Numbered from the stretch's first letter, positions 17,976 through 48,036 are shown. The stretch is DNA of 50,244 nucleotides from a virus (IMGVR_UViG_3300005663_000064:1-50244); one strand, 5' to 3'. A program made the numbers and translations. The notes: generated from the sequence alone by a model not told the origin.

Positions 17976-20900
17976 TGCTACAACAAGTTATAAAAGAGCC
18001 AGATCAGTTCACGAAAGACCTGATTGCTAAGAGACAAAAGCAACGTAGCCAATTGCAACCTGATGCTTTTACTCAAGAGCTAATCGCTAAGAGAGCTAAA
18101 GCTCAACCAGATCAGTTTACTCGTAACCTTATTTCTGAAAGAGCTAAGGAAAATAATGAAACTGGTTTCTGGCGCAGAGCAGGGCAGAGGGCTATATTCT
18201 CTGGACTTAGCCTTGTCAAGGGTGTTCGTGAGGTATTCGAGCCACCCGAGAAGTTAGGCGAAGCGATAAAGGAAGCTCTGCCAAGTAGCGCAATAGAGGC
18301 TCAGGAAGAACAGAAAAAGGCTTTCGAGAGATTGCGGTCTAAGGCCAAACCAGAAGAAGCTAAGGGATGGAAGGATATAGCTGCTGATATAGTCGGTGAA
18401 GTTCCATCATTCTTCGTTGCTGGTGGTTTATCCAAGAAGTTAACTCAAAATATTGCTAACAACCTACTTAGACGTGGATCGCGTGGAGCGTTAACCTCGT
18501 TTGTATTCGATATATCGCAAGATCATAAGATTTCGCCTGAGCAAGCCGTTGCCTTTGCCGGCATAGATGCTTTACTCATTCCTGGTGCTAAGAAAACTTT
18601 CGATATACTTAAGCAGGTTAAACAGCTCAAGAACTTGAAAGTCACGGCACAGATACCAAAGAGTGCTGATGATCTATTCGGTGCTGCTGAAGGTTTAGTT
18701 CCAACTGAACTTGATCGACTTGGACTGGCTGCTAAGACTGCGGAAAGAGAACTCGCTGAGTCAAAGAGGCTGCTCAAGAAACCGGTAGTTACTAAGCCGA
18801 GTAAGGTAGCAACCAAAGGCAGGGAGGAATTAGAGGAATTTGCTGGGATAGGCCCGCCTAAAGAGAAAAGGGCGTTTGTAATCGAGTCTGAGAATGTGTT
18901 CAACGAGAAAACCTCAAGTTTCGATAACATCAGAACGGTTAAGATACCGGATCACGTTACCAATCCTATTGATAACTATAAGATGATAAGCCATAGTCCC
19001 GGTAGAAATCAGACTTACCTATCTGAGATGCACGCTGACATAGTGGAAGGCTTAGAACGGGTTGGTAATCGACTCACAGATAAGGAGCTTAATGCTATCG
19101 TTAAGGGAGCATATAGCGATAAGACAGGCCAAGTGCTGATGCAACAATTAGAGAAAGTTCCCAATGAGGTTAAGAACGACCTGTTTAAGAACCTCAGAGA
19201 GATGGGATATAGTAACCAGCAACTTGATGAGTTCGCTAAGACGATAAAGTTCGCTGATAAAGCCATCCCCGAAGTGGTAAAAGATGCTACGGAGGTGGTA
19301 TCACCTGAATTAAAGACGCTACAAGGGCAATTCTTTGCTACATTAAAACGTAAAGGCATAAGCACGGAAAGCCAAGAATATAAGGCTCTTCTTGAAGAAG
19401 GCTTAGGCATAAATGATCTAAAGTTTAAGGGTAAAACTGCGGTTGGCGAGACTCAGATGAGAGATATGATCAGGCGGGTCAACAGTCTCAGCGTAGACGA
19501 TGTGCCTCAAGACCGGCTTACCAAGCTGATCAACGGTGAGATGCCGGTGATACTTGGTGAGGACTTAGGCAATCAATCGTCTTCATCCTTCAGAGTAGCA
19601 AGAGTCATCTTCAACAAGGGGTTGACCAGCGTAGAGACGATGATGCGTAGGACAGGCCCTATAGGCAACCAGATAGCTGAGAGGATTCTTAAGTTCAAAG
19701 CTTGGAAAGATCGTACTACTCAGCAGGACTTGAGTGTCATCAAACAAGCCTTTAAGAAGTTTAACAATAAGGAAACAAGGGAGTTTATCAAGAGCTACGA
19801 AACCGACACTGTAGACTTCTCTAAGCCGAAGTTTAAGGATGCTTACGATCTCCTTAGGCCAGTGCTTCATGAGAAGGGCCTGAAAGCCGAGGAGTTAGGA
19901 TTCAAGATACGATCTACTTCAGGCAAGGGTGTAAGGCCGTTTACTCTCAAGGAGAATTACTGGCCTCACGTCTTTGACTTTGATATAACCAAGGCTACTA
20001 AGGGCAGAGAACGGCTGATCAAGCACTGGATGAAGAAAAACGGTGTGACAAGGGGTGAAGCTATGGCCGAACTCGATAAACTTGCCAAGCTCCGTAATTC
20101 CAACCTTGATCCTAACCTTGAGTTCGAGAGAGCGTTTAACGCTGGTGGCTGGCTTGGTGATCCTACGTTTGAAGGCTTTACCAAGCGGAAGGCCATTAGA
20201 GGTTTATCCCGTTATGTGGATGGTGCTAACAGGCGACTCGGGGAGGCTACCTTCTTCGATGCTGAAGGTAAGCGTGTTTTCGGTGAAGGATGGAAGTCGT
20301 TTAACGAGTTGGTTAACATGGTCGGCGACCGTGATAAGCAAAACCTGCTGGTCAAGGGGCTTGAAGCTGTCAGAGGTCTAAATTCCTCTGAGGTGGAGAA
20401 TACATTCCTCGGTGCGTTGAGGAACTACCAGATTGTGCAGAAGTTATTCTTCGCTACTATTCCCAATGCGTTCCAGAACGCTATTACTACTATTCCCAAG
20501 GTTCAAGGACTTGGCTTTACAAGAGGGGTCAAGGCTGTGATTAAGGGTGGATTCGATGCCTTTGCTAATCCCAACTTTGCAAGACTTGAGGTTGGAGCTG
20601 CCGTTAATCAGACGCTAAAGGATATTACGGGTATGTCAAGCCGTGGATTTAGTGGTAGACTGGCAAACATCTTCCTGAAGATAAACGGATTCTCTGCGGT
20701 TGAAGCGAGGAACAACATCGTTGCTGCATCTATGGGTAGAGTCTATATTAATGAAGCGTTCAAGGTTGTTACTAAGAAGCAAGCTACAGGGACTTTCATA
20801 GGTAAACGGCTAACCGATAGACTAATCTTCAATGCTAAGAAGGAACTAAAGCTATTCGGTATAAGTGAAGATGCTATTAAGAGAGGTTCGCTTGCCTCGG

Positions 20901-32853: not shown

Positions 32854-33030
32854 CGTTTTTTCTCCTCAATCTTTATAAGGATATTTACAGTCGGTCATGG
32901 CATCCTTCAACTTTCTTATTCTTTTATTCTTATAGTAGATTCTACCAACGACATAACCGGCAATACCACTAAGGGAGAACAAAAGAAAATATTTGATATA
33001 GTCCATAATCAACTCCTCGTTACGTTAATA

Positions 33031-33132
33031 AAGCGCAGTCAGGCAGTAGGGTTTTCACTGCAACAATACCTGACTATCGGCATACCGGGTCGCCACATCT
33101 ATCGTCAGACTCCCACACCACTGACTGCACTT
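33031..33132 (-). ncRNA. Candidate structured RNA
   Basis: Closing 12-bp stem AAGUGCAGUCAG/CUGACUGCGCUU; non-coding; begins just downstream of a sigma-54 promoter. Confidence 0.5.
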
Positions 33133-33153
33133 CTATAGTTGTATCTATGGTAT

Positions 33154-33169
33154 AGCAATCTCTGTGCCA
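33154..33169 (-). promoter_or_regulatory. Sigma-54 (-24/-12) promoter
   Basis: TGGCACA-GAGA-TTGCT, intergenic. Confidence 0.75.
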
Positions 33170-33266
33170 CAGCGGATTCACGCACACTAGAGTCAAGAGC
33201 GGCGGTTCAAGAAGGGTGCGATGGTGGTCGGTTATCGTCCACTGAAGCTTTATCAGGCAGTTTCAT

Positions 33267-33590
33267 TTACTCCTCCATGATTTGTTCGGTGGTGACACGT
33301 TTGATTAAACGAAACAAATCAGGGTTTCGTGGCAAAAAATGTTTTCGTTCTTTTTTTATATATGTGCGTGCTCCTTTTTTAGTTTTTTGGTAATCATGTA
33401 AATCACCCCAATTACCAAGTTTATATTGCACCACATACTCAACCTTCCCCTCCATTTCAAACAGTTTTTCTATCTCAGTGGCAATGGTTTCGTATTTTTG
33501 ATTCCAAATATCTAAATATGTGAGAGCGTTAACCTCGTAAATAGATTCATTAAGCCTTAACACTTTAATTATTTTATCTCTCCATCTCAC
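33267..33590 (-). CDS. Hypothetical protein
   Basis: RBS AGGAGG. Confidence 0.6.
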   Translation of the reverse strand: MRWRDKIIKVLRLNESIYEVNALTYLDIWNQKYETIATEIEKLFEMEGKVEYVVQYKLGNWGDLHDYQKTKKGARTYIKKERKHFLPRNPDLFRLIKRVTTEQIMEE

Positions 33591-33662
33591 ATCTCCTCCT
33601 TTGGCTGGGGGTTAAAATCCACCTTGCCATTTTTAAATGTTACCTCAATTCCCTTTTGCATA

Positions 33663-34091
33663 TTAACTCCTATTTATTATTGTCATCACTGTTGAAATAT
33701 ATTGTCCCTGTTTTAACACAATATGTTGACAGCCTTTAATCTCTCCTATTTCCATTAACCAGCTCTCCCAGCTTTCTGAGAGTAATGAGATAAAATCCTT
33801 TGAACTACCACGCTTTTCATATCTATCGATATACTCATCTTTTAACTTCAAGTCAGGATAAACTAAAATTACTATTATCCCTATCTTAATTACAGAAACC
33901 ACTACAGTTGGGTTTGTGCTGATGAAGATAATATCAGCATTACCGAGAGCTTGTTGTATGTCGGTAATACAGTTTTTTGGAAATTTATCTTGGTTATATC
34001 TCCAGCACTCAAACTCAACGAACCTATCGCTGGCATTACAAAGATGTGTTTTCCCTGTCCCACAAAATGCTGACACAACTATTGCGCTCAT
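33663..34091 (-). CDS. P-loop NMP-kinase-like protein
   Basis: VSAFCGTGKT and LVYP..K.EY..R...RG. Confidence 0.75.
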   Translation of the reverse strand: MSAIVVSAFCGTGKTHLCNASDRFVEFECWRYNQDKFPKNCITDIQQALGNADIIFISTNPTVVVSVIKIGIIVILVYPDLKLKDEYIDRYEKRGSSKDFISLLSESWESWLMEIGEIKGCQHIVLKQGQYISTVMTIINRS

Positions 34092-34177
34092 CTCATCCTC
34101 CTCTTAGTTAATGAGTTTACTTAGTTTATTCCGGCTATCGCCGGTTGTTGTCTTATCAGTGCAACCGACAGGAGAAG

Positions 34178-34477
34178 TTAATTGCCTAAATTCTTTCTCA
34201 ACCTCCTGGCAGCACCCCAAAGTGTTGATCTATTCTCTTTGTCTTTCACTATTAGATGAACTTTCTCATGACAATCGCCACATAACGGTAATAGATCGTG
34301 TAGATTTTCACGTTTTAGACGATTATACGACTTGTGATGTATCTGTAACGGAACATCGGGATTCTCACAGCAGTAACAGTGTCCTTTATACAATTTGCTT
34401 CTATAATATCGCTTTTTAACAGCTTTCCATTCGTCAGATCGCAGGTAAGCTCGATAGTCCTTGTAGTCGATTCTCAT
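34178..34477 (-). CDS. Small HNH endonuclease
   Basis: YLRSDEW..CYCC..IHHKSY..L..E..DLLPLC..CH. Confidence 0.85.
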   Translation of the reverse strand: MRIDYKDYRAYLRSDEWKAVKKRYYRSKLYKGHCYCCENPDVPLQIHHKSYNRLKRENLHDLLPLCGDCHEKVHLIVKDKENRSTLWGAARRLRKNLGN

Positions 34478-34489
34478 TTGTCTCTCCTT

Positions 34490-34884
34490 GAACAGCTTGT
34501 CTTGATCTTACTCGACTGACCCAGGCGCAACACTCCGTATGTAGAAGGCGTTCCAGCGATAATCTCAAGTGGCGTTGGCTGAGCGGTTGCTCCCGCCTCG
34601 ATCATCACTGTCCGCAAGTCTTCGCCGCCAGTCTCTTAAGTGTTTTAGCCAATGGTGGTCGTGGTGTGGACATAGTTATATATCAAAAAGGTGTTTCAAT
34701 TGGGTAGGCCCGCTGCTTGTTTCAGACAGCTCATAGAGGCGAATCCCCCTAAGAAATTGTCAACGCAATGCGTTAGGTTTATGTGTGCAATCTTATTAAT
34801 CGCTGACGGCTGTCTCTCCGCTTCAACATCTTAACCTTGCTATTTTAGAGTGCTGCTTCATTATCTCAAGGAATAGCAACAAGT
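34490..34884 (-). ncRNA. Candidate ~390-nt structured RNA between two HNH genes
   Basis: No ORF of 60 aa or more; several hairpins visible by eye. Confidence 0.4.
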
Positions 34885-35322
34885 TTAAAGACCTTTTTTC
34901 TTTCTAAGCTTACTATTAATCTCATCCATTTTACTGAGATTGAATGGTTTATTTAAGTGGTTATTTTTATTTATACTTCTATTGGTTGGTGTGTTTAATT
35001 TATCTTGAAGTCTTGTCAATTCTTTCTTCTTTGGAGCGTAGGGGGTTAACTCTTCTGGTTTGCTGTGATTGTGATATATATTATGGCATCCTCCGCAGAG
35101 GACAATTAAATCTTCTGATATAATTTCTTCATAAAGACGGTCGTAATTTCTGTGGTGAACTTCGAGCCCCCACCTTATTCCGCATAATACACAGGATCTA
35201 TACATCCGCAAAGTCAATTTTCTCACGTTCTTCCAGTGGGGAGTTCTTAGATAGTGGCGATAAGACTCTCTGTGCTGCCTCTTCTTACTTCTTCTCTTTG
35301 ATCTGTATGGATGATTCGCCAT
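34885..35322 (-). CDS. Small HNH endonuclease
   Basis: YLRTPHW..CVLC..VHHRNY..L.EE..DLIVLC..CH. Confidence 0.85.
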   Translation of the reverse strand: MANHPYRSKRRSKKRQHRESYRHYLRTPHWKNVRKLTLRMYRSCVLCGIRWGLEVHHRNYDRLYEEIISEDLIVLCGGCHNIYHNHSKPEELTPYAPKKKELTRLQDKLNTPTNRSINKNNHLNKPFNLSKMDEINSKLRKKKGL

Positions 35323-35616
35323 ATAATTCTCTTATTTCACAGCCTCAGCTTCCAGCTTCGCCATTTCACGGTCGCTATACTCTCCATTGCAATCGTCACA
35401 GATCAGCCCACACTTATCCTGCGGATCTTCGTGGCAACCGTGGTAGTCTGAGTCAATTTGTTCATCGCACATGTTACATCGGAATATGCTCATGCTTGGC
35501 CTTCCATTCTTCTTCAGTTTTAGGTTCTGGTTTTTTATAACAAGGACAGGTGCTTACCCATATAGCATTAACCCGACTGCACTTGGGACACTCCCAACCT
35601 TTTGATGTTTGCTTAT

Positions 35617-36117
35617 TCATGCCTTCTCCTCAGCCTCAGCTTCGAGTAGTTCAGGGTTCTCATGGATATTGCCGATGATTTCAATCCACTCAATATACAT
35701 TTCGGCAACATAAGTAGCCCAATTAGAAATTTCGTAATGGAAGCAAAACGATCCTTGTTTGAAAACTATTTCAGCGATTCTTGTATAGTCCTCTCTTGTG
35801 GTTGGTTTCCCGCATTTTGGGCAGTATTTTGATGTTCCAAGCTCAAGGCTCTCATGACACTTTTCCCCCTTGCAGAATGTTTTTTTCTGTGCAAAATTCA
35901 CCACGTCCCCCTCGTAAATCTCCTTCCTGTTCTTATCCTTTAAGCCGGTAAATTCCCCCACTGTTTCGGGATTGACACAATAACTACTTTTATCGGTTTT
36001 TATCCAGTAACTATTATCACGATCAATAACAAGAGAGCCATAAACCCACTTATTCTCTTCTGGGTATAGTGCATTTTTAGCTTTAACAAATCTACCTCTG
36101 AATTTTATAGTTCGCAT
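35617..36117 (-). CDS. YopX family protein with Zn-ribbon insert
   Basis: MRTIKFRG, W.YGSL, ETVGEFTGLKDKN..IYEGD and IIGNIHENPELL; CPKC insert. Confidence 0.9.
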   Translation of the reverse strand: MRTIKFRGRFVKAKNALYPEENKWVYGSLVIDRDNSYWIKTDKSSYCVNPETVGEFTGLKDKNRKEIYEGDVVNFAQKKTFCKGEKCHESLELGTSKYCPKCGKPTTREDYTRIAEIVFKQGSFCFHYEISNWATYVAEMYIEWIEIIGNIHENPELLEAEAEEKA

Positions 36118-36132
36118 ACCTACTCCACAAAT

Positions 36133-36258
36133 AAAAAAAGCTACAGAACCAAACGAAACTGTAGCCTTTTATAATTATTAACTATGTCTGTTTGGTTTTT
36201 CGTTTTCATCACCGTTTGGTGACATCTTCAATCTATCACTTAATTCTGATAATGTCAA
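36133..36258 (-). promoter_or_regulatory. Sigma-70 promoter plus leader/terminator upstream of the YopX gene
   Basis: TTGACA-17-TAGATT (36258-36230); GCTACAG/CTGTAGC stem plus U tract. Confidence 0.75.
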
Positions 36259-36272
36259 TACTAAATTCATCA

Positions 36273-36461
36273 TTATGGAATTGACACTAACGCATGAGGC
36301 GGAACCAGCTCAAATTCACCACGTTGGGTTTGGACTATAGCACATGGTTGACCGAACTCGCTAGCAGATACAAAACCAACGATGTAGCCGAACTCCCAAG
36401 CATGGACTGTTGTAGGTTGGGGAACGGAGTTGTTCATTTTCATTTTTACTTTGATCTTCAT
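36273..36461 (-). CDS. Hypothetical protein
   Basis: RBS GAGGAGG. Confidence 0.55.
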   Translation of the reverse strand: MKIKVKMKMNNSVPQPTTVHAWEFGYIVGFVSASEFGQPCAIVQTQRGEFELVPPHALVSIP

Positions 36462-36721
36462 ATCTCCTCCTCATCATCTTTGCCAACACAATAAGAGCAT
36501 GGCGGATTAATATGACACGAACAACCATCGTATGTCCCGCCATCATAATCGGAGATGGCATCGTCTAATCGCTTGCTTTGTCCTGGTGCAAAGTGACGGT
36601 CGTAGCTCTTCCTCTTCTCATCCATATTTTTCCATATCTTTTCTCTGAGCTTACGAGTGCACTCTCCGCAGTAGCCATAGTCAGATGCGTCAGGGGTGCA
36701 ACCACACGATAGTTTAGCCAT
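36458..36721 (-). CDS. Cys-rich hypothetical protein
   Basis: GCSCHINPPCSYCV motif; start moved to ATG 36721 behind AGGAG. Confidence 0.6.
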   Translation of the reverse strand: MAKLSCGCTPDASDYGYCGECTRKLREKIWKNMDEKRKSYDRHFAPGQSKRLDDAISDYDGGTYDGCSCHINPPCSYCVGKDDEEEI

Positions 36722-36932
36722 TAGCCTTCTCCTTTTTATCCACCGTTCGCTGAACCTGTTGCATAGCCCAATCGAGTCTATCTTCAGGCATATTGTCAAC
36801 CACTTTATCAATGTGTAAATCTAAATTGTTATGCGAATACATTCGTTTGAATAGTAGCTTTTCCGCTGTTGTGCATTGCGATAGACCCTTCTTCAAGCTA
36901 TCTCGCGCAAACTTCTGTAATTGGTTATTCAT
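36714..36932 (-). CDS. Hypothetical protein
   Basis: FKRMYSH..LDWAM.QV; RBS GAGGAG. Confidence 0.65.
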   Translation of the reverse strand: MNNQLQKFARDSLKKGLSQCTTAEKLLFKRMYSHNNLDLHIDKVVDNMPEDRLDWAMQQVQRTVDKKEKANG

Positions 36933-36952
36933 CTCTCCTCCTCATATAAAAT

Positions 36953-37123
36953 ATAGAGTTGTGTGCTATTACGCCAAAGAGGCGAGGACAGTCTGCCAAC
37001 ACACGTTGATTGACACCGTTCCGACATTGGCTGTGTCTCAAGCCAGAGGTCGCCTAGCTTATTTAAGGCTGCCCACCTCACTCTTTAAATGGTGGCTGCT
37101 TCTAAGCCTACATCCAACTCTAT
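36953..37123 (-). ncRNA. 23S rRNA H43/H44 (uL11-binding GTPase centre) mimic RNA with 104-nt insert
   Basis: Minus strand GGATGTAGGCTTAGAAGCAGCCACCATTTAAAGAGTG..GCGTAATAGCACAC, closed by ATAGAGTTG/CAACTCTAT. Confidence 0.8.
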
Positions 37124-37140
37124 GCTTTGTTAATATAGTA

Positions 37141-37343
37141 AGGCGGCCGGCAGTTGGCCTGCAACCCACTCGGTCAGGATGCCACTCCACAACCGCCTAT
37201 AAACAGCGACCCAGACACTAGATCATATTTCCTCCAATAACAACCAGCCGGAGAGCGCAATAGGCGTGCGTGCAACGCCTCGTTTTACGTGGACGGTTAT
37301 GGCTATATGTTAAAGCAGAGCCACACCATAAGATGTCTGCTTT
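37141..37343 (-). ncRNA. Three small hairpin-closed RNA units upstream of the rRNA mimic
   Basis: Closing stems at 37141-37198, 37246-37304 and 37312-37343, separated by spacers. Confidence 0.4.
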
Positions 37344-37372
37344 TATCACCTCGCGCTCTCAGACTGCCCAAT

Positions 37373-37539
37373 AAAAAACCCACACGCGGTAAATTCTGGG
37401 AAAGAACAGGCTCAACAGAAGCCCTGCATGTGGGTAATGTGGTTATGTTAATATTGTCCTGTTGATTTGTTCGTTCTTCCCAAAGATTCATTTGATTCAT
37501 TATATATCTATAATCTAACCTTCTAAACACTAAAGTCAA
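37373..37539 (-). promoter_or_regulatory. Sigma-70 promoter plus leader/terminator upstream of the RNA array
   Basis: TTGACT-16-TAGATT; ACCCACA/TGTGGGT stem plus U6. Confidence 0.6.
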
Positions 37540-37744
37540 GCTTTATTTTACATTACCTTAACAAATATACGATCATGGCTCCAAGCATAAACGCTTTGAT
37601 TTATCTCTTTTATTTCGCCCAGCTCGATCAATCTGTCAACATAAGCCATCATGTTCCAGACATCACTTTGTACATCTTTTAATGCGAAAAACATTTTAAA
37701 TGCCCCAGCGTCTTTTAGTAACCGATTTGCTTTGGCGCGTACTT

Positions 37745-37975
37745 TTAAAAGGTTTCGCTTTCCATTAACTGTCTTTTATCTTCTTCCAATTCTTGCAGCC
37801 TCAACTCAAAGCCATTAACCAAGGTGCTAATTTCCCGCACGGAATGTTCCAAACTATCCAGCTTGCCACGGAGCGAAGAAATCTCGTGACTGTCTGCTTT
37901 ACCATCTACTTTCCTCCTTATTTCTGAAATTTCTGATTGTAGCTGTCCTGAATCTGTACACGGATGAAGCAACAT
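37745..37975 (-). CDS. Coiled-coil hypothetical protein
   Basis: RBS AGGAG; heptad pattern. Confidence 0.6.
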   Translation of the reverse strand: MLLHPCTDSGQLQSEISEIRRKVDGKADSHEISSLRGKLDSLEHSVREISTLVNGFELRLQELEEDKRQLMESETF

Positions 37976-37995
37976 AACTTCTCCTTAAAATTAAG

Positions 37996-38150
37996 GCGGT
38001 TGACGACATCGGCTGGCCTCTTGGCTTGCTGCGTATTACCCACTTCCACTTGGCTTAGTCTACCTGGCCGACAGGTTGCAATTAAGGTTATATACTAACG
38101 CCCGGATTTTCACCGTATTTTGCAAGCTCCTGGCGTTAATCGTCAACCGC
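37996..38150 (-). ncRNA. Candidate structured RNA
   Basis: Perfect 11-bp closing stem GCGGTTGACGA/TCGTCAACCGC with two internal arms. Confidence 0.55.
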
Positions 38151-38308
38151 GTTACCTGCCACTAATTCATTATTTCTTTTTTCCCTCATAGGTATCTAAA
38201 ATCGCATTGACATTTTTAAGCTGGGTAGGTATCAGGTCGATTCCTTTTAGATACGCAACCAGCCATGATTGCATGTCACTAAACGATTGCTGTTTGATCT
38301 GTTTTACT

Positions 38309-38581
38309 TTAGTCATTGGTTGCCTCCTCTTTGTTATATCCTAAGTGTTTCAACCAAGCATCAATTGTAACTTGGGGGATGTTGGTATTGCACTTCTTAA
38401 TGTCTCTGAAGTTGCAACTCTCAGAGTTTGTCATTGTGCGTAATTGTCCTCCCTGGTAGTTGCTCCAAAACCGGCAAAAGGCAGATTCGTTTGACTCTTT
38501 CACCTTAGTTATAAACCCATATTCAACGTCATAATGTCCAGGATTATACTTTATTTGATCACCTATTTTGAACTTAGGCAT
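38309..38581 (-). CDS. Hypothetical protein
   Basis: RBS GAGGAGG; first gene after a sigma-54 promoter. Confidence 0.65.
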   Translation of the reverse strand: MPKFKIGDQIKYNPGHYDVEYGFITKVKESNESAFCRFWSNYQGGQLRTMTNSESCNFRDIKKCNTNIPQVTIDAWLKHLGYNKEEATND

Positions 38582-38661
38582 TGTTGAACCTCCTCTTTTT
38601 GTTTCAAGTTGAAAAATCTTGTGCTTAGACCGGCGTTTTTTTATTTTTCATAATGAAAATT

Positions 38662-38677
38662 AGCAACAATCGTGCCA
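38662..38677 (-). promoter_or_regulatory. Sigma-54 promoter
   Basis: TGGCACG-ATTG-TTGCT. Confidence 0.8.
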
Positions 38678-38869
38678 GCTAATTTCTCGTTATCGTATAA
38701 AGATCACCCTTAAGCCGATTCACCGGCAGGGCGAACACGGCGATCGTCACGGCTTGCACGTCCTTGATCAGCCCAAAACGGAAGTAATAGGCCAGTAGGT
38801 GGCTGATTAAGGTTGGTTTATGCATGGTGTTAATTAGTTGCCATCCCATTGCTTTACTCCTCTGTTCGT

Positions 38870-39112
38870 TTATAATTTCTTCCAGTAATAACTTGGTTCT
38901 TTTGATGTCGCATCGTCTATAATTCTTGCCTTGTCACCTTTTGCTTCCTGTTTAGCACAATCCAGTGCCGAGTCATAATTGCAATGGATTGTTTTACAAC
39001 CCTCTTCGCCCGTATCGGTATCTAGTATGCCCATATACCAAACATAATATTTAGCGTTTTGTTTTCTGTCGTGATACAGTTCAGGGCCGGTTATGTGGAA
39101 TACGTATGCCAT
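38870..39112 (-). CDS. Hypothetical protein
   Basis: TAATG coupling. Confidence 0.6.
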   Translation of the reverse strand: MAYVFHITGPELYHDRKQNAKYYVWYMGILDTDTGEEGCKTIHCNYDSALDCAKQEAKGDKARIIDDATSKEPSYYWKKL

Positions 39113-39393
39113 TAAAACGTTCCCACCAAATCCTCAATATCGCCATTAGCGTCAATGTGATCCCATATCTCGGTTAGCGATACCTGGCTAATGATTTCAC
39201 CGACACCATAAGCGTCAAGCTCGGTGTTGTCATATTCGGTCATGGAAACATCTGACGTGATTCTTTTTTCCTTTGCGATTCGCGCTAAAACCATAACGTA
39301 ATCAGAGTCCCAGCTATCGGGCAGTTTGTGGCAACCCCCATACTTTTTAAGTGGTTTAATGTCATCATACCAACTCATTGAAAATCGTTTCAT
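39112..39393 (-). CDS. Hypothetical protein
   Basis: RBS GAGG. Confidence 0.6.
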   Translation of the reverse strand: MKRFSMSWYDDIKPLKKYGGCHKLPDSWDSDYVMVLARIAKEKRITSDVSMTEYDNTELDAYGVGEIISQVSLTEIWDHIDANGDIEDLVGTF

Positions 39394-39450
39394 ATCTTTA
39401 TTCCTCTTGTTAATGCCTAAGATCCAGCCAAAAGGGCAAGGAAACAGTTG

Positions 39451-39672
39451 TCAGAGAACCTTTTTTTCAAATACGCTTCTTAATGGGCCGGAAGGAAGTA
39501 ATTTCCAGTCCTTTTGTTTGAACGAGTTTAGCACTATTTTCTTACACTTATTGTCACAGTGTAGAGTTTGCTTTATTCCTTGAATGGTGAAGTTGTTTAC
39601 CCGTTCATTTGGATCAATAGGTAAGATAAATACTCCACATACATCACATTTAGCACCGCTACTTGTTATCAT
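39451..39672 (-). CDS. Zn-finger hypothetical protein
   Basis: CDVC..HCDNKC. Confidence 0.55.
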   Translation of the reverse strand: MITSSGAKCDVCGVFILPIDPNERVNNFTIQGIKQTLHCDNKCKKIVLNSFKQKDWKLLPSGPLRSVFEKKVL

Positions 39673-39743
39673 TTAACCATCCAAGTTTTTTAAGTCCATA
39701 TTATAATTATCCCCACTGGCCGGATTTCGTCCATTAGGAATCA

Positions 39744-39968
39744 TCAGTTAGGCTGATCTAACATCCAAACTAAATGCTTGCCTATCCATTCCGGTTTTAC
39801 GATTCCTTCGTAGTTATTATTTGGGGTGCAAGTTGGTGCTTTTCTGCATGCTCTTCTGGTGTAAGATAAAAGAAAAGCGCAACCAACGCAAGCGTGACTT
39901 CCTTTTTTGTATAGATACGGTTGTAGTTTATAAGTACTTCCATCATCATCGGTATATTTTAATTTCAT
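39744..39968 (-). CDS. Cys-rich hypothetical protein
   Basis: CVGCAF; RBS GAGGAG. Confidence 0.55.
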   Translation of the reverse strand: MKLKYTDDDGSTYKLQPYLYKKGSHACVGCAFLLSYTRRACRKAPTCTPNNNYEGIVKPEWIGKHLVWMLDQPN

Positions 39969-39981
39969 ACAATCTCCTCAA

Positions 39982-40236
39982 CTATTCTTTAATCATGGTA
40001 TCAAAGTTATCGGTAAACAATAAATAACCATGATTCGTTTCGCTCAGTCCGATAATTGGGATGCTCCGAAACTTTGTTAAATGGTCGGCAGCAGTGGTAT
40101 ATATCCCATTGTTTTCTTCATAGTCGAAGTCAATTATAATTCTTTTATCGTGTCGGGTGTCGTGTATTCTGATTCTTGCTCCCTTGGTGTCGGTAGGGCC
40201 TATATATTTTACATCAAACGCTCTGTAATTTTTCAT
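39982..40236 (-). CDS. Hypothetical protein
   Basis: KYIGPTDTKGARI motif typical of very early phage ORFs; RBS GAGGAGG. Confidence 0.7.
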   Translation of the reverse strand: MKNYRAFDVKYIGPTDTKGARIRIHDTRHDKRIIIDFDYEENNGIYTTAADHLTKFRSIPIIGLSETNHGYLLFTDNFDTMIKE

Positions 40237-40264
40237 TTCACTACCTCCTCTTTCAGTTTATTAT

Positions 40265-40280
40265 TGCAAGAAGCGTGCCA
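40265..40280 (-). promoter_or_regulatory. Sigma-54 promoter
   Basis: TGGCACG-CTTC-TTGCA, 29 nt upstream of ATG 40236. Confidence 0.8.
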
Positions 40281-40443
40281 GCCCTGATCCATGCTTGATT
40301 CAGAGCCAGCGGGTCAAGGCGATGGACGATTATCGGCCAGTTAAAGTAAATTATTCGGGTTCAATTGTTCCGCCAAATTGCTTTTCCTCAAGTGCTTTGA
40401 TAAGTGCTGTTTTATCCATTGTGTTTCCTCCTCTTCTATTCCA

Positions 40444-40641
40444 TCAAAACCAGTTATTCCGTATCCTGGTTATATTCTTATAGGCCACTGTCCGGCTTAT
40501 GTTGGGATATTTCTTGCTGTATTCTTTACTTGCCCATAGCATCCGTTGGTAGTTACTGTCATCTTGACCGGATAAAGCACATTTAGCAAGATGAAAAAGG
40601 TTCATCAACTCCGCCTTTTGTTCCTGGTTAAAGTCAAACAT
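40444..40641 (-). CDS. Hypothetical protein
   Basis: Start moved to ATG 40641 behind GAGGAGG. Confidence 0.6.
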   Translation of the reverse strand: MFDFNQEQKAELMNLFHLAKCALSGQDDSNYQRMLWASKEYSKKYPNISRTVAYKNITRIRNNWF

Positions 40642-40870
40642 AGTGTTAGTTTCCTCCTCTTTAGTTAAATTAGCTCCATACAAGCTCTGTAAGGGACGAT
40701 CTTTTTAGTTAGGTGTTGTTGGTTCGGCTATTTACCAAGTTAAATAAAGTGGCCATAGCTGGCGTATCATTTGACCTCAACTTGCAAGGTAGCGCTTAAT
40801 CTAACCAGCGCCCGTGTTTGGACAGCCATCACGGCATTATGACCACTATGCAGTTGCAACTTTTGGCTAT

Positions 40871-41071
40871 TTAGTGATAAACCACGTTCAACGTATGGGA
40901 ATCTAATTGTATATCTTCTTCGAACTCATCCCCTTGATAGTTGACCTTAGCAGTTATCAAATCAACATTGACATTAGTCAATAACAACTCACAACCTTTA
41001 GAGTTGTAGACTGTAAGGTTTAACTCTCTAAGAACGGTTAAGACGTCTTTTGTTTGTTGTTTGGTTATCAT
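40871..41071 (-). CDS. Hypothetical protein
   Basis: RBS GAGGAG; first gene after a sigma-54 promoter. Confidence 0.6.
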   Translation of the reverse strand: MITKQQTKDVLTVLRELNLTVYNSKGCELLLTNVNVDLITAKVNYQGDEFEEDIQLDSHTLNVVYH

Positions 41072-41159
41072 TTCTTTATCTCCTCGTTTGGTTTACTTAC
41101 AGCTCCGCCAGTTAAGTCCCATTATCTTGACTTATTGGGGTGTTATCTAACTGTAGTAT

Positions 41160-41175
41160 TGCAATCTTCGTGCCA
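41160..41175 (-). promoter_or_regulatory. Sigma-54 promoter
   Basis: TGGCACG-AAGA-TTGCA. Confidence 0.8.
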
Positions 41176-42110
41176 AGCTACCCTATCTCTTTACTCATCT
41201 ATTTAACCTACAAGCTACTAAACTAATAACACTAACTTGCTTATAAGCTGGTTTATATCAGACCACTGGATTATAATTATCCACATTAAGCACAAATCTT
41301 CGGAATCAGCGGTTTACAGATCCAAAACAGCGGGGCAAGGGTTGAAACAACGTCCATAGAAGGCTTGTAATGGGCGGTCTATCCAGGGTTAACCCGTTTG
41401 TATGGGCATTTTTCAGGGTAAGCGATTTAAGACCCAAACTTTCTTTTTCTTATACTACTCCGAAGGAGTTCTTTTTCTTTGCTCTTGATCTTATCTCATT
41501 TATTTATCTTATAAGTTAATCTACTAAGTGAACTATATCAGTTTACACCTGGTTTATATCTATCCACCTGGATTAGATTACACCACTTTATCCCATCATC
41601 TATTATAATCATATATATGGTATATCCCACAGAGTAATACATACTACATGTAGTAGTATAGGCTAAAACACATATATACAGTATGTTATGCACTGTGTAC
41701 ACACTGACAATAGGTGTCATATTCGCCGCTATATTCTTTTACTTTTGTATATATATATTATATACTATATACACGCGCACGCGATACACGCGTGCGCGCA
41801 GGGGTTAAAGAGTTTAGTATAGCAGGTTAGAATACTACTCTCTACTTGCCTATCTTATCAACTAAACAATGATATAGCACGTTAATATGCTCATGGTTAT
41901 AGTTTTTTATAAATATCATCTAGCTTGAAGTAGCTACATGCTAAACCAGCAAGTATCCACAGTAGCAGAATAACAGTCATCTATCCTCCAGGTTATAAGT
42001 TAAATAAAAAAGAATTCTTTTTAGTATATTCTTATGGGTATGACCCTTTAAAGCTGAGGTAGGGGTGAGAGTATAAAAATGTCTATGATAATTTACAGTA
42101 AATTTATTCA
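41176..42110. other. Long AT-rich non-coding region (candidate origin or genome end)
   Basis: No credible ORF; repeated CTGG..CCA 18-mers, TTATCCACA at 41277, and (TA)n followed by (CG)-rich tract at ~41748-41800. Confidence 0.5.
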
Positions 42111-42422: not shown

Positions 42423-42590
42423 TCATTTTTTCGCCATTTTATATATGGATTTACAGGTGTTGCAACGCCAAGTCTCTTTCACTCTCCGTGTGAATAAGCA
42501 ACCGGGTGAAATCATCTCAACTGATTCAAGTTTTAACATCTTTGATTTTTTAAACTTTCCATGGCAGACATCACATTTCTTCTTCATCCT
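42423..42590 (-). CDS. Small Zn-ribbon protein
   Basis: MKKKCDVC..CNTC behind GAGGAG; start approximate. Confidence 0.5.
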   Translation of the reverse strand, partial: RMKKKCDVCHGKFKKSKMLKLESVEMISPGCLFTRRVKETWRCNTCKSIYKMAKK

Positions 42591-42746
42591 TTCCCTCCTC
42601 ATCCACAAGCCGTTGCATCAGCATCCTGACAGTCGCAGCATAGTTCCTGCTGGTTTCGTTACAGTAAGCGGTAAAATCCCGATAAAGTTTGTGGTGCTTG
42701 GGTTGACCTCTGAATGGGATATGAAGATCCCTGATTGGTATCTTTT

Positions 42747-43250
42747 TCATGATATATACTCCGCAAAATTGATAGCTGCTTGCTTCGCTTGATTTAGACC
42801 TGTTATCTTAATCGAACCCCTGAGTCGGAATGGTACTTTTTCACACTCAATGAGAAACCCACATTTGTCTCTTTCTCCTGTTCCCCCTTCAGGATACCAG
42901 TTCTCTTCAAAGAGCATGTCGTTGTACCCGAAACCTTGGATTGCTCGATGACTCCACCCATACCACTTTTCTTCTTTAGCACAGAAACCAATGGAGCAAA
43001 CATATGAAGATACATCTTTCTTTATCGGGGATATTCCGTGTTTTACTATTAACTTATAAGCCCACTTTGAGTCACCTATGTAATGTCCGTAAAGATTATA
43101 AGCCCCTTTTTTTGTTAGTAGAGCGTGCCCTTCCGGTTTGTCTTTAAAGTGTGATAGCCAATATTCATCTCGAATAGTATATCCAGCTTTGTAATGCCTC
43201 TCACGAACAACTCGGTTGCCTTCCTTCTTGTTTAGAATGATCTCGTTCAT
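42747..43250 (-). CDS. Conserved-looking phage hypothetical protein
   Basis: CSIGF..EEKWYGWSHRAI.GF..AKQAAINFA. Confidence 0.7.
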   Translation of the reverse strand: MNEIILNKKEGNRVVRERHYKAGYTIRDEYWLSHFKDKPEGHALLTKKGAYNLYGHYIGDSKWAYKLIVKHGISPIKKDVSSYVCSIGFCAKEEKWYGWSHRAIQGFGYNDMLFEENWYPEGGTGERDKCGFLIECEKVPFRLRGSIKITGLNQAKQAAINFAEYIS

Positions 43251-43318
43251 TTTCTTTTTCCCTTTCTTGAACCGCTGTTTTTGATCTACTTTAATTATGG
43301 ATTATGTTAATCTGTGTT

Positions 43319-43398
43319 AATATACGGTAAGTCTTCTGATAATGCAAATCTTTTCTTGTTATTTTTTATTTGCTTTTTAGTTTTCTGCGTATTATATT
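43319..43398. promoter_or_regulatory. Divergent sigma-70 promoter pair at the strand switch
   Basis: Minus strand: TTGCAT-17-TATATT (43347-43319). Plus strand: TTGCTT-17-TATATT (43370-43398). Confidence 0.65.
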
Positions 43399-45884: not shown

Positions 45885-46248
45885 AGTTAAACTATGCGAC
45901 ATGGCTCTGAAGGCCACGAGTTTTGAGATCGATGATTTACTCGGCAAGGTAGGTGAGGTTGTTGAACGTGTAGCTGATGGTAACTGGATCGTTTCATTTG
46001 GACATCATCGTGTCTATGCTCTCCCTGAACATTATCTCGGCGAGACTGTGCTTAAGATAGTTTATGACGATACTCATGGCACACCGCCTGAACCTGAAGT
46101 TGTTAAGAAGTCTAATGCGAAGAAAGTAGCTACTGCGAAACGTAAAGAAACTATGAAGAAGAAAGTTGCGGCAGAGAAGGTTGCTGTGGAATCTAAAGTT
46201 ACTCTACCTGTAAAAAAGAGGACTGATGGAAGTCTTAACCTCAAGTAG
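45877..46248 (+). CDS. Hypothetical protein with K/A-rich tail
   Basis: ATG 45877 behind AGGAG. Confidence 0.6.
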   Translation: MIKVKLCDMALKATSFEIDDLLGKVGEVVERVADGNWIVSFGHHRVYALPEHYLGETVLKIVYDDTHGTPPEPEVVKKSNAKKVATAKRKETMKKKVAAEKVAVESKVTLPVKKRTDGSLNLK

Positions 46249-47269
46249 AACCCATACGAAGCATGATGATATGGTGAAGATGTATCAAGATCCTGCATAC
46301 TTTGATATAAACATCTTGCCTAATCATTTCTGGAAACCTCTTGCTGAAGTTCATTTCAGAATGCAGAGGGCTATCCATTCCACTGTTCCGTTCGTGAACA
46401 TTATCGTCCCTCGTGAATTTGGCAAGACTACCGTAGTTAATTGTGGGTTCCCACTTTACAATATCTGCTTCGGTCTTGAGAGATTTATTGTTATGTGTTC
46501 TGAGACTGCTACCGAGGCGGAGTCCAATCTCCGGACTGTTAAGTATGAACTCGTTACGAATGATCGGATTAAGCATTATTGGGGTGATCTTAAAGTTGAT
46601 CGGGTTAAGGATGAGTTTGGAAAGTGGAATGAAAAATACGCTAAGACGAGTACTGGGATCTACTTGGCGGCGAAGGGTGCCGGATCGCAGATTCGAGGCA
46701 TTAAGGCGATAAACGTCCGGCCTACATTGATCATAGTCGATGATCCGCAGGGAATCCGCACTATTCTTACCGAGCAGACTCTTAACAAGATGGATACTTG
46801 GCTTGAGAATGAAGTTATATTCGCCAGAGCGACTAAGTATCAACGTAAGGTTGGCGGTAAGACTAAGACTTTTCATGGCAAGGTTAGATTACTCGGGACG
46901 GTTGTTCATCATGAGTGTTTGGTTAATCGTAAGCGTAAGGATAGTCGATTTACGACTGTGTTTATGCAAGCGATTGAGCATGATAAGGATGGTAATCGAA
47001 TCAGTTTATGGCCTGAGATGTTCTCTCTTAACTCTCTCGATAAACAGCGGGCTGAGTATAAGGCTAATGGTAAAGAGAAAGTGTGGATGCAGGAGAAGAT
47101 GAATGTGCCGATGTCGGAGGAGGATAAACCGTTTGATAAGAATAGGATTAAGTACTGGGATAATGTTGTTGATGGCGGTAATTCCTATTTCGATATCTAC
47201 CATGGCGTTCCCGTTCTAACGTTTAGTAACCCATGTGTAGGATTAACTGAAGGGATGGATAGTGTCTGA
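46226..47269 (+). CDS. terL: Terminase large subunit, ATPase domain
   Basis: PREFGKTT Walker A, QIRG..RPTLIIVDDPQ Walker B, LGTVVH and WPE..QEKMN.P. Confidence 0.9.
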   Translation: MEVLTSSRTHTKHDDMVKMYQDPAYFDINILPNHFWKPLAEVHFRMQRAIHSTVPFVNIIVPREFGKTTVVNCGFPLYNICFGLERFIVMCSETATEAESNLRTVKYELVTNDRIKHYWGDLKVDRVKDEFGKWNEKYAKTSTGIYLAAKGAGSQIRGIKAINVRPTLIIVDDPQGIRTILTEQTLNKMDTWLENEVIFARATKYQRKVGGKTKTFHGKVRLLGTVVHHECLVNRKRKDSRFTTVFMQAIEHDKDGNRISLWPEMFSLNSLDKQRAEYKANGKEKVWMQEKMNVPMSEEDKPFDKNRIKYWDNVVDGGNSYFDIYHGVPVLTFSNPCVGLTEGMDSV

Positions 47270-47438
47270 TAAAATAGTTCAAGGCGGAAAGAAAGGTCGG
47301 AAGATCGGAAGGAATAAAGTTGAGTGTAAGCGTTATCGTGATGAAGATAGGCGTGAGAAGAATAAACAGAGACGTGCTGAGTTTAGAAAACTTAGACTAG
47401 AAAAAGGTAAGTTGAAAAAGGAACTTAAAAGTGTATAG
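47262..47438 (+). CDS. Very basic 58-aa ORF between the TerL halves (not in the ORF track)
   Basis: GTG start; MSDKIVQGGKKGRKIGRNKVECKRYR..KSV. Confidence 0.6.
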   Translation: MSDKIVQGGKKGRKIGRNKVECKRYRDEDRREKNKQRRAEFRKLRLEKGKLKKELKSV

Positions 47439-48036
47439 ACTTCCCGTATATACCTTCACCGCTATGGATATTGCAACCACTGATGCGAAGATTCCGGATT
47501 ATACGGTTATTATAACCGGAGCTACTGACTATAGAAATAACTTGATGGTGCTTGAGATTTGGAAACAGAAAGGGAGCAATCCGATTAATCGTATGAAAGA
47601 AGTGACGAGACAGGTTTTGCATTATCAATCAAGAGTGCTTGGCATAGAGGAAAATAGGGCTGAGGACTTTATCGACATGTACGAATGGCTTCTTGATCGT
47701 GGTGAGTGGGCTCAGGAATTTGGCGAGATAAGCAGAAGTATCGTTAATAGAATTCAGAGACTTCCGCATTACACACAATCCAAGAGGGATAGGATTATTG
47801 ATAGATTGCAGCCAATTATCAATGCTCACTCTCTATGGCTAACTAAGGATTTATCCTGGCTTGCCGACAATCTTGATATTTATCCACAGATTGAATATGA
47901 TGATGATATTGATGCTCTTGAGATGTTACGATATATCGCCCGACCGCCTTCTGAAGATTTGAATATTAGCGGTTACGAGGAGGAAAATTCCTTAACTGTG
48001 CTTGAGTATAACCCAATAACGATGTGTTGGAATTAG
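47431..48036 (+). CDS. terL: Terminase large subunit, RNase H-like nuclease domain
   Basis: AMDIA..DYTVI, GIEEN, K.DRI..LQP and YDDDIDAL; own AAGGA RBS. Confidence 0.85.
   Translation: MYRLPVYTFTAMDIATTDAKIPDYTVIITGATDYRNNLMVLEIWKQKGSNPINRMKEVTRQVLHYQSRVLGIEENRAEDFIDMYEWLLDRGEWAQEFGEISRSIVNRIQRLPHYTQSKRDRIIDRLQPIINAHSLWLTKDLSWLADNLDIYPQIEYDDDIDALEMLRYIARPPSEDLNISGYEEENSLTVLEYNPITMCWN

Follow-up and report, generated by a model that had tools for sequence, protein, structure and literature searches.

Four sigma-54-type promoter boxes in the leftward arm of an orphan podovirus-like phage with no recognisable activator gene

Introduction

The RNA polymerase holoenzyme containing sigma-54 forms closed complexes at its promoters, and these are opened only by ATP hydrolysis of an AAA+ activator. 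Promoters of this class stay silent until the ATP-driven activator opens them and represent the tightest bacterial switch; the enhancer-dependent promoters of the glnAp2/NtrC, pspA/PspF and nifH/NifA type are examples. Here we describe four boxes of this kind, P1 to P4, in the leftward gene arm of the viral record IMGVR_UViG_3300005663_000064:1-50244, hereafter the window, which is the whole stretch of DNA analysed (50,244 bp). We consider it probable that P1 to P4 are real promoters of host sigma-54 (RpoN/SigL), that they belong to delayed-early or middle transcription units, and that their activator comes from the host or is an unrecognised phage factor.

In print, sigma-54 use by phages is termed 'rare' but 'not unprecedented', and YuA, a phage of Pseudomonas aeruginosa, is said to depend strictly on host sigma-54 for its development (available text of PMC5053324). 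A sigma-54-like YuA promoter has been recovered with a mapped transcription start (available text of PMC10914365). Like YuA as portrayed in these texts, the phage studied here would place part of its programme on host sigma-54, with sigma-54-like promoters standing beside sigma-70-like ones. The two cases differ in that YuA is a siphovirus with a known host, studied by promoter trap and ONT-cappable-seq, whereas the window is an orphan podovirus-like genome known from sequence alone; moreover, the available portions of the two papers mention one sigma-54-like promoter (PMC5053324; PMC10914365), as compared with four consensus sites in the window. Another phage route to the sigma-54 polymerase has been proposed for Htm (Gp204) of the T4-like Mosigvirus AV110, a bacterial enhancer-binding protein (bEBP)-like AAA+ protein without GAFTGA, whose action on this polymerase is put forward in the available text as its authors' hypothesis (bioRxiv 10.64898/2026.10.06.757011). 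For Pectobacterium phage Q19, a putative sigma-54-like protein was reported on the basis of HHpred (available text of PMC7693777). Arrays of sigma-54 promoters in phages were not described in the full-text literature searched, a search that left subscription journals and supplements outside.

When set beside the bacterial promoters, the four boxes show the same -24 GG and -12 GC elements at exact spacing, the same TGGCACG-N4-TTGCW sequence and the same placement upstream of, and co-oriented with, genes. They differ from these in being carried by a lytic phage that has no activator gene linked to them. A lytic phage that keeps its middle genes, the replication module among them, behind sigma-54 promoters would leave the timing of infection to be set by a signalling protein of the host or by a new kind of activator, and the combination of four promoters, a common upstream box and a compact genome of 50 kb offers a small and tractable test case.

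Four Boxes with the Sigma-54 Consensus

The pattern TGGCACRNNNNTTGCW (TGGCACR-N4-TTGCW) has exactly four matches in the window against 0.04 expected. All of them lie on the reverse strand (0 forward, 4 reverse), and the reversed-pattern control gave 0/0. Each site combines the -24 GG and -12 GC elements, at the exact 10-nt spacing, with the extended consensus, and according to the gene map each is intergenic and points in the same direction as the coding open reading frames (ORFs) downstream of it (Table 1). The sequence-only reading had listed the same four boxes as exact, intergenic and confined to the minus strand, all of which the scan of both strands and the gene map bear out. The N4 spacers and the flanks vary among P1 to P4 and only the sigma-54 contact bases are constant, so that a single copied repeat does not account for them. 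Relaxing the pattern to TGGCAC-N5-TTGC with up to two mismatches yields 4 perfect, 3 one-mismatch and 41 two-mismatch sites, 48 in total against 31.3 expected; the perfect sites are thus four that stand above a near-chance background, with no graded tail.

One could argue from the small number of sites, and from their being known from sequence alone, that they are chance matches without function. This is exceedingly improbable given that none of 100 dinucleotide shuffles reached four matches (mean 0.04) and that every one of the sites lies between genes on the same strand.

By a textbook rule, sigma-54 promoters begin transcription some 12 nt beyond the C of the -12 GC, and we infer all +1 positions given for P1 to P4 from it. 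The most compact of the resulting arrangements is that of P2, at which the ribosome-binding site AGAGGAGG begins 14 nt past the box and the distance from the T of TGGCAC to the ATG is 44 nt. At P1 and at P3 a strong ribosome-binding site follows at a distance of about 75-90 nt, and P3 itself starts 1 nt beyond the stop of a weakly coding ORF (38679-38849, 56 aa, coding score 0.022). P4 precedes a leader with a long, stable hairpin, while the P1 and P3 leaders fold no better than shuffles; no Rfam family reached the gathering score, nor did any appear at E<=1 between 32800 and 43500. The sequence-only reading had placed each site shortly upstream of a ribosome-binding site or a structured RNA, which agrees with the ribosome-binding sites at P1 to P3 and the hairpin leader at P4. 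Within the window the boxes are single, on one strand and 0.9-5.5 kb apart, with no opposed pairs or tight clusters. The cassettes behind P1 to P3 consist of small ORFs that lack a named function. Behind P4 come further small ORFs, then a Cas4-like nuclease family (phrog_1706), several unknowns and a DnaC/IstB-type loader, the recombination/replication genes reaching down to 24335.

Search for an Activator and a Sigma Factor

The sigma-54 activator domain PF00158 gave nothing at E<=10 in the six frames of the window, and neither a GAFTGA-like nor an ESELFG motif occurs in any of them. The sole AAA+-like protein of the window is the DnaC/IstB-type loader, which sets this phage apart from AV110, whose Htm is itself a bEBP-like AAA+ protein, although the proposed route of Htm, to judge from the available text, likewise leads to the sigma-54 polymerase without a canonical bEBP (bioRxiv 10.64898/2026.10.06.757011). 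Because the phage encodes no AAA+ activator and no recognisable enhancer-binding protein, firing must hang on a host enhancer-binding protein or on an unrecognised phage factor. Both points had been anticipated from the sequence-only reading, which saw no GAFTGA activator in the window and proposed that activation would pass through a host or phage factor.

The sigma-54 DNA-binding domain PF04552 gave nothing at E<=10 either, the RpoN-box motif is absent from the window, and neither an RNA polymerase nor a DNA polymerase is among the families found there. With no RNA polymerase or sigma-54 domains encoded, the phage must use host holoenzymes. Searches of the phage for HTH_3 and RHH_1 domains found none, no DNA-binding family appeared among the matches listed (25/38 Pfam families, 51 leftward ORFs), and the first rightward ORF (299 aa) belongs to no family. 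The 10 ORFs directly behind P1 and P2 all lack a named function, and in another set of arm ORFs 6 of 10 are without family.

Two candidates were considered, of which the first is rejected and the second is not supported. A match to the sigma-54 core-binding domain PF04963 at 19130-19282 lies within a 1158-aa virion protein, scores 12.3 bits and is omitted when the protein is searched with hmmscan. The ORF at 42571-42750 (59 aa), taken as a possible ribbon-helix-helix protein, has no homologue and no RHH_1 match, and its single-sequence model is one long helix.

Phages often bring their own promoter specificity, and most ORFs of the arm have no family. The motif could in principle be read by a phage-specified factor, such as a small sigma-like or DNA-binding protein, in which case the likeness to sigma-54 promoters would be resemblance only. 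The 10 ORFs without named function behind P1 and P2 and the failure to find an activator would also suit this explanation. We regard it as highly unlikely: the canonical sigma-54 consensus is matched at every specified position in 4/4 sites, variation is confined to positions at which sigma-54 tolerates change, and the phage encodes neither the sigma-54 DNA-binding domain nor the RpoN-box motif. Furthermore, the consensus recurs in unrelated phages of 29-48% G+C that share no protein in the retrieved parts (G002 to G006, below), a recurrence more in line with a universal host factor than with a private one.

Recurrence of the Box in Other Viral Records

A scan of IMG/VR for TGGCACG-N4-TTGCAATA returned at least 119 stretches, each picked for one site. 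Two or more TGGCAC-N5-TTGC sites were present in 39/119, and three or more in 15/119, of the at least 119 stretches listed. Ten records with multiple sites, G002 to G011, are included in Table 1; the reversed-pattern control gave 0 or 1 match in each of them. The sequence-only reading had called multiple sigma-54 early promoters unusual for a phage. This holds for the literature searched, where the use made by YuA is called rare, but not for uncultivated phages, given the share of listed loci with at least two sites and a record with 40.

Promoter geometry was defined as a co-oriented ORF of at least 50 aa that starts with ATG 30-70 nt past the box, and was scored on the retrieved parts of the records. 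In G002, G003 and G005 most sites have this geometry, as compared with 12-16% of random positions in the same three records. In G002, 33 co-oriented boxes lie within 30027-57624, and in G003, 17 boxes (15 reverse, 2 forward) lie within 40061-71436; most boxes of these stretches are found 30-58 nt before a start codon. In G004, eight boxes are crowded into 1.6 kb at the record end (50085-51698), among them the facing pairs 50994+/51054- and 51647+/51684-.

The window and these records have in common the box itself, its presence several times per genome and the lack of a bEBP gene, as well as, for G002, G003 and G005, the promoter distance. They differ in that boxes number 4-40 in the other records and often stand 30-58 nt from an ATG or face each other, whereas the four boxes of the window are single and three of them have long leaders. 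A bEBP was found in 0/10 of the records G002 to G011, which are 12-100% complete, so that a firm absence can be claimed for G009 alone, which is complete at 452 kb; the sole PF00158 hit above threshold, in G002, is a ClpB-like chaperone and was set aside. Likewise, no record of the ten has a sigma-54 DNA-binding domain above threshold. A tblastn search with 308 window ORFs against the retrieved viral loci gave 10 weak hits, none of them regulatory. Window proteins have no match in the retrieved parts of G002 to G006, and one matches, at 25% identity, the locus L145 of G007. Unrelated viral records in which no bEBP gene was found hold 16 to 29 boxes at promoter positions, and because promoter-placed boxes recur in this way, the identity of the sigma-54 activator on phage DNA is a general question.

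A different explanation is docking without productive initiation, in which closed complexes on phage DNA would act as a cassette boundary or roadblock, or, on replicating phage DNA, as a sink for the host sigma-54 polymerase that would silence the sigma-54 responses of the host. The sigma-54 holoenzyme is able to bind promoters stably without firing (available text of PMC4591121), the phage has no activator gene, 4/4 sites lie at cassette borders, and elsewhere there are arrays, dense or facing, that do not precede genes, with promoter spacing at only 2/8 sites in G004 and 3/8 in G006. We nevertheless consider docking decidedly unlikely for the window, since its sites are single, unpaired and all point with the genes, since the placement of P2, with its short leader, is exactly promoter-like, and since the tight geometry is found at 48/59 sites of G002, G003 and G005.

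An extension of the reading as sigma-54 promoters would take in the phage studied here and the many uncultivated phages with box arrays. We speculate, while holding it to be unlikely, that they fire these promoters without a conventional enhancer-binding protein by means of a small, unrecognised phage protein. Such a protein would lift the block imposed by region I of sigma-54 or would be a non-AAA+ activator, perhaps tethered at the 21-nt box described below. If true, this would amount to a private, host-insulated class of phage promoters built on a host sigma factor.

A Shared 21-nt Box and the Order of the Arm

Repeat finding and pattern searches brought out an element of about 21 nt, with the core TTGMMCCGCYG-N4-TGAWYC, upstream of P1, P2 and P4 (Table 1). 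A minor variant lies 4 nt upstream of the P4 copy, at 33214, and the copy at P3 is degenerate. The best copy is found in the divergent control region. There it is part of the Tad6 operon leader and overlaps a possible rightward promoter (TTGAAC-17-TTTAAT). The core was counted 5 times against 0.06 expected. In an unbiased comparison of the four upstream windows together with the control region, the box emerged as the best shared 21-mer, with 14 mismatches over the three other regions, a result reached in 0/150 shuffles; the degenerate P3 copy was left out of both the core count and this test. We treat the 21-nt box as a candidate operator or enhancer. Like the repeated upstream sites of bacterial sigma-54 promoters, it could serve as an enhancer, but its distance from two of the promoters (about -43 to -67) is unusually short, and it has no visible dyad symmetry.

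The first leftward gene encodes a homologue of Tad6, a ThsB-binding inhibitor of type I Thoeris (available text of PMC13728456), and small Cys-rich and coiled-coil ORFs follow it. The Tad6 gene and several small ORFs thus take up the first 1.35 kb or so of the arm, upstream of all sigma-54 sites; this block is preceded by a sigma-70-like promoter and followed by a GC hairpin that is a candidate end of the first operon. In view of this preceding block the sigma-54 sites look delayed-early or middle, not immediate-early, an order that derives from gene order only. The sequence-only reading had the four boxes driving the early arm, which has to be revised accordingly for the Tad6 block. A sigma-70-like promoter and a terminator also lie within the arm, which therefore uses mixed promoter types.

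Proposed Mechanism and Its Weak Points

In the reading we favour, host RNA polymerase with sigma-54 (RpoN/SigL) would recognise P1 to P4 as -24/-12 promoters, and these would divide the leftward arm of a lytic phage lacking its own polymerase into delayed-early or middle units. P1 to P3 would serve the cassettes of small ORFs of unknown function, and P4, via its structured leader, would serve the recombination/replication module. The Tad6 anti-defence gene and the first small ORFs would be made from an ordinary sigma-70-type promoter. The activator could act from solution or via the 21-nt box common to three of the promoters and the early control region. Within this reading we lean somewhat towards a host enhancer-binding protein, an unrecognised phage factor being the slightly less probable source.

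Several observations weigh against parts of this proposal. The tight spacing between box and ATG seen in other phages (30-58 nt) occurs at P2 only, that is, at 1/4 window sites. The co-orientation of the four sites is weak by itself, being expected about once in 16 by chance, and further sigma-70-like promoters within the arm, such as that at 36258-36230, imply that the boxes need not be its sole drivers. For the 21-nt box, the core pattern was written after the sites had been seen, its fifth exact occurrence lies inside a coding region (45186), and the box is only degenerate at P3. When the four upstream windows are compared alone in an 11-mer test, the box, with 3 mismatches, is matched or beaten in 142/300 shuffles and is not significant, and the top shared motif is then the ribosome-binding site. 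The combination of box and sigma-54 promoter gave 43 scattered single hits and no host regulon in 185,579 species genomes. None of the runs that contain the record is an RNA run, and searches of IMG/VR, GenBank phages and GTDB gave no relative in which the promoters could be compared. The only hints at the host, finally, are strong Shine-Dalgarno sites and clusters of the DnaC-like protein that are rich in Bacillota. A single IMG/VR hit of the combined box and promoter pattern falls in coding sequence and was dismissed as chance, like the 43 genome hits.

Table 1. Coordinates of features in the window, and other viral records that carry the box (for the latter, the position column gives the record length). 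The +1 positions are those predicted by the 12-nt rule; geometry refers to the promoter geometry defined in the text.
Feature	Position	Strand	Details
Window (whole IMG/VR virus record)	1-50244		50,244 bp; CheckV 100% complete
Rightward structural genes	43425, across record ends, to 24309	+	
Leftward arm genes	43250 to 24335	-	
Sigma-70-like promoter TTTGCA-18-TATATT	43319..43348	-	9/12 consensus positions; consensus match only
21-nt box, best copy, divergent control region	43267..43287	+	orientation opposite to the P1, P2 and P4 copies
Tad6 homologue, first leftward gene	42747..43250	-	PF25188, E 1.9e-45, 155 bits; upstream of P1-P4
11-bp GC hairpin, then U/A-rich tract	41773..41799	-	z -3.68; 0/200 shuffles as stable
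21-nt box upstream of P1	41318..41338	-	about -189 to -169; inverted repeat I8
P1, TGGCACG-N4-TTGCA	41160..41175	-	+1 ~41149; 78-nt leader; ATG 41071
First ORF after P1	40871..41071	-	66 aa; no family; coding score 0.151
21-nt box upstream of P2	40297..40317	-	about -63 to -43
P2	40265..40280	-	+1 ~40254; 18-nt leader with AGAGGAGG; ATG 40236
First ORF after P2	39982..40236	-	84 aa; weak phrog_3199 match; coding score 0.162
Degenerate, shortened box copy upstream of P3	38717..38735	-	about -84 to -66; weak, loosest regular expression only
P3	38662..38677	-	+1 ~38651; 70-nt leader; ATG 38581
First ORF after P3	38309..38581	-	90 aa; no family; coding score 0.175
Intrinsic terminator, clean, in the arm	~36165-36130		
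21-nt box upstream of P4	33190..33210	-	about -67 to -47; inverted repeat I3
P4, TGGCACA-N4-TTGCT	33154..33169	-	+1 ~33143; 137-nt structured leader; ATG 33006
Long hairpin of P4 leader	33030..33133	-	-47.1 kcal/mol; z -2.98; 2/200 shuffles as stable
First ORF after P4	32866..33006	-	46 aa; hydrophobic; coding score 0.177
One-mismatch TGGCAC-N5-TTGC site	4182	-	
One-mismatch TGGCAC-N5-TTGC site	24186	+	
One-mismatch TGGCAC-N5-TTGC site	34071	+	
Window, promoter geometry			geometry 1/4 sites, 44 nt
G002	217 kb		40 sites, 33 forward; geometry 29/35 sites, 38-58 nt
G003	81 kb		20 sites, 15 reverse; geometry 16/20 sites, 30-55 nt
G004	52 kb		8 sites, 5 forward, 3 reverse; geometry 2/8 sites, 38, 63 nt
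G005	127 kb		6 sites, all reverse; geometry 3/4 sites, 49-52 nt
G006	90 kb		8 sites, all forward; geometry 3/8 sites, 31, 34, 62 nt
G007	13 kb		5 sites, all forward
G008	349 kb		10 sites, 4 forward, 6 reverse
G009	452 kb		10 sites, 6 forward, 4 reverse
G010	7.8 kb		4 sites, all reverse
G011	73 kb		4 sites, 3 forward, 1 reverse

The Phage and Its Relatives

The phage is complete, uncultured, orphan and podovirus-like. Family searches of the window identified an SU10-type capsid protein, a P22-type portal and a terminase, and searches for an integrase, for tRNAs and for terminal repeats of the 50,244-bp record found none. The record stems from a study of marine sediment and is contained in three DNA runs of that one study, the contigs of which hold no divergent strain across the four promoters. 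Among GenBank phages there is no DNA match except two 37-nt hits, a tblastn search with the portal gave no match, and the closest capsid matches have 21-22% identity only. Searches of IMG/VR with the portal, the YopX protein, the phrog_4182 protein and a portal alignment returned no relative, and neither did a search of GTDB genomes. The sole related contig in JGI metagenomes is 3.7 kb long and ends before the leftward arm; two portal relatives at 89-90%, P0002 and P0003, are encoded on other contigs, of 23.1 kb and 33.1 kb.

Additional Observations in the Leftward Arm

P1 forms the end of a gene-free stretch of 826 nt (41072-41897) that holds iteron pairs and an AT-rich tract and looks like a replication origin or another regulatory hub. 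A 19-nt direct repeat, GTGG-N7-ATAAWCCAG, forms two pairs, at 41248-41284 and 41549-41585, within a duplication of about 110 nt, the lower pair about 75-110 nt upstream of P1. The iteron pattern has 3 hits against 0.02 expected, and the AT-rich tract and the 11-bp GC hairpin adjoin the repeats.

Variation among contigs touches two parts of the arm. Just upstream of P4, 307 nt (33273-33579, within the ORF 33267-33590 of 107 aa and no family) are skipped by contigs of the second sample; the first sample holds both forms of this indel, and P4 and its box are intact. On a low-depth contig, 271 nt at 39451-39721 (ORF 39451-39672) are swapped for 36 other letters.

At 36258-36230 lies a TTGACA-17-TAGATT promoter with an extended TG, followed about 90 nt on by a canonical terminator; the segment 36258-36130, which precedes the YopX gene, may represent a small RNA or an attenuated leader. 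Two long stretches of the leftward strand, 36930-38170 and 34478-34884, have low coding potential and no Rfam match at E<=1. The second sits between two HNH endonuclease genes, and its 407 nt fold with z -2.07; both are possible unknown RNAs or intron remnants. The Lar restriction-alleviation family is matched by one of the 51 leftward ORFs, and two Cys-rich ORFs that were checked are not Lar.

Outside the leftward arm, the terminase large subunit is divided between two ORFs in different frames (46226-47269 and 47431-48036) with about 160 nt between them. They match consecutive positions of phrog_38, 260-539 and 545-707, and the split could be due to an intron, a frameshift or an error.

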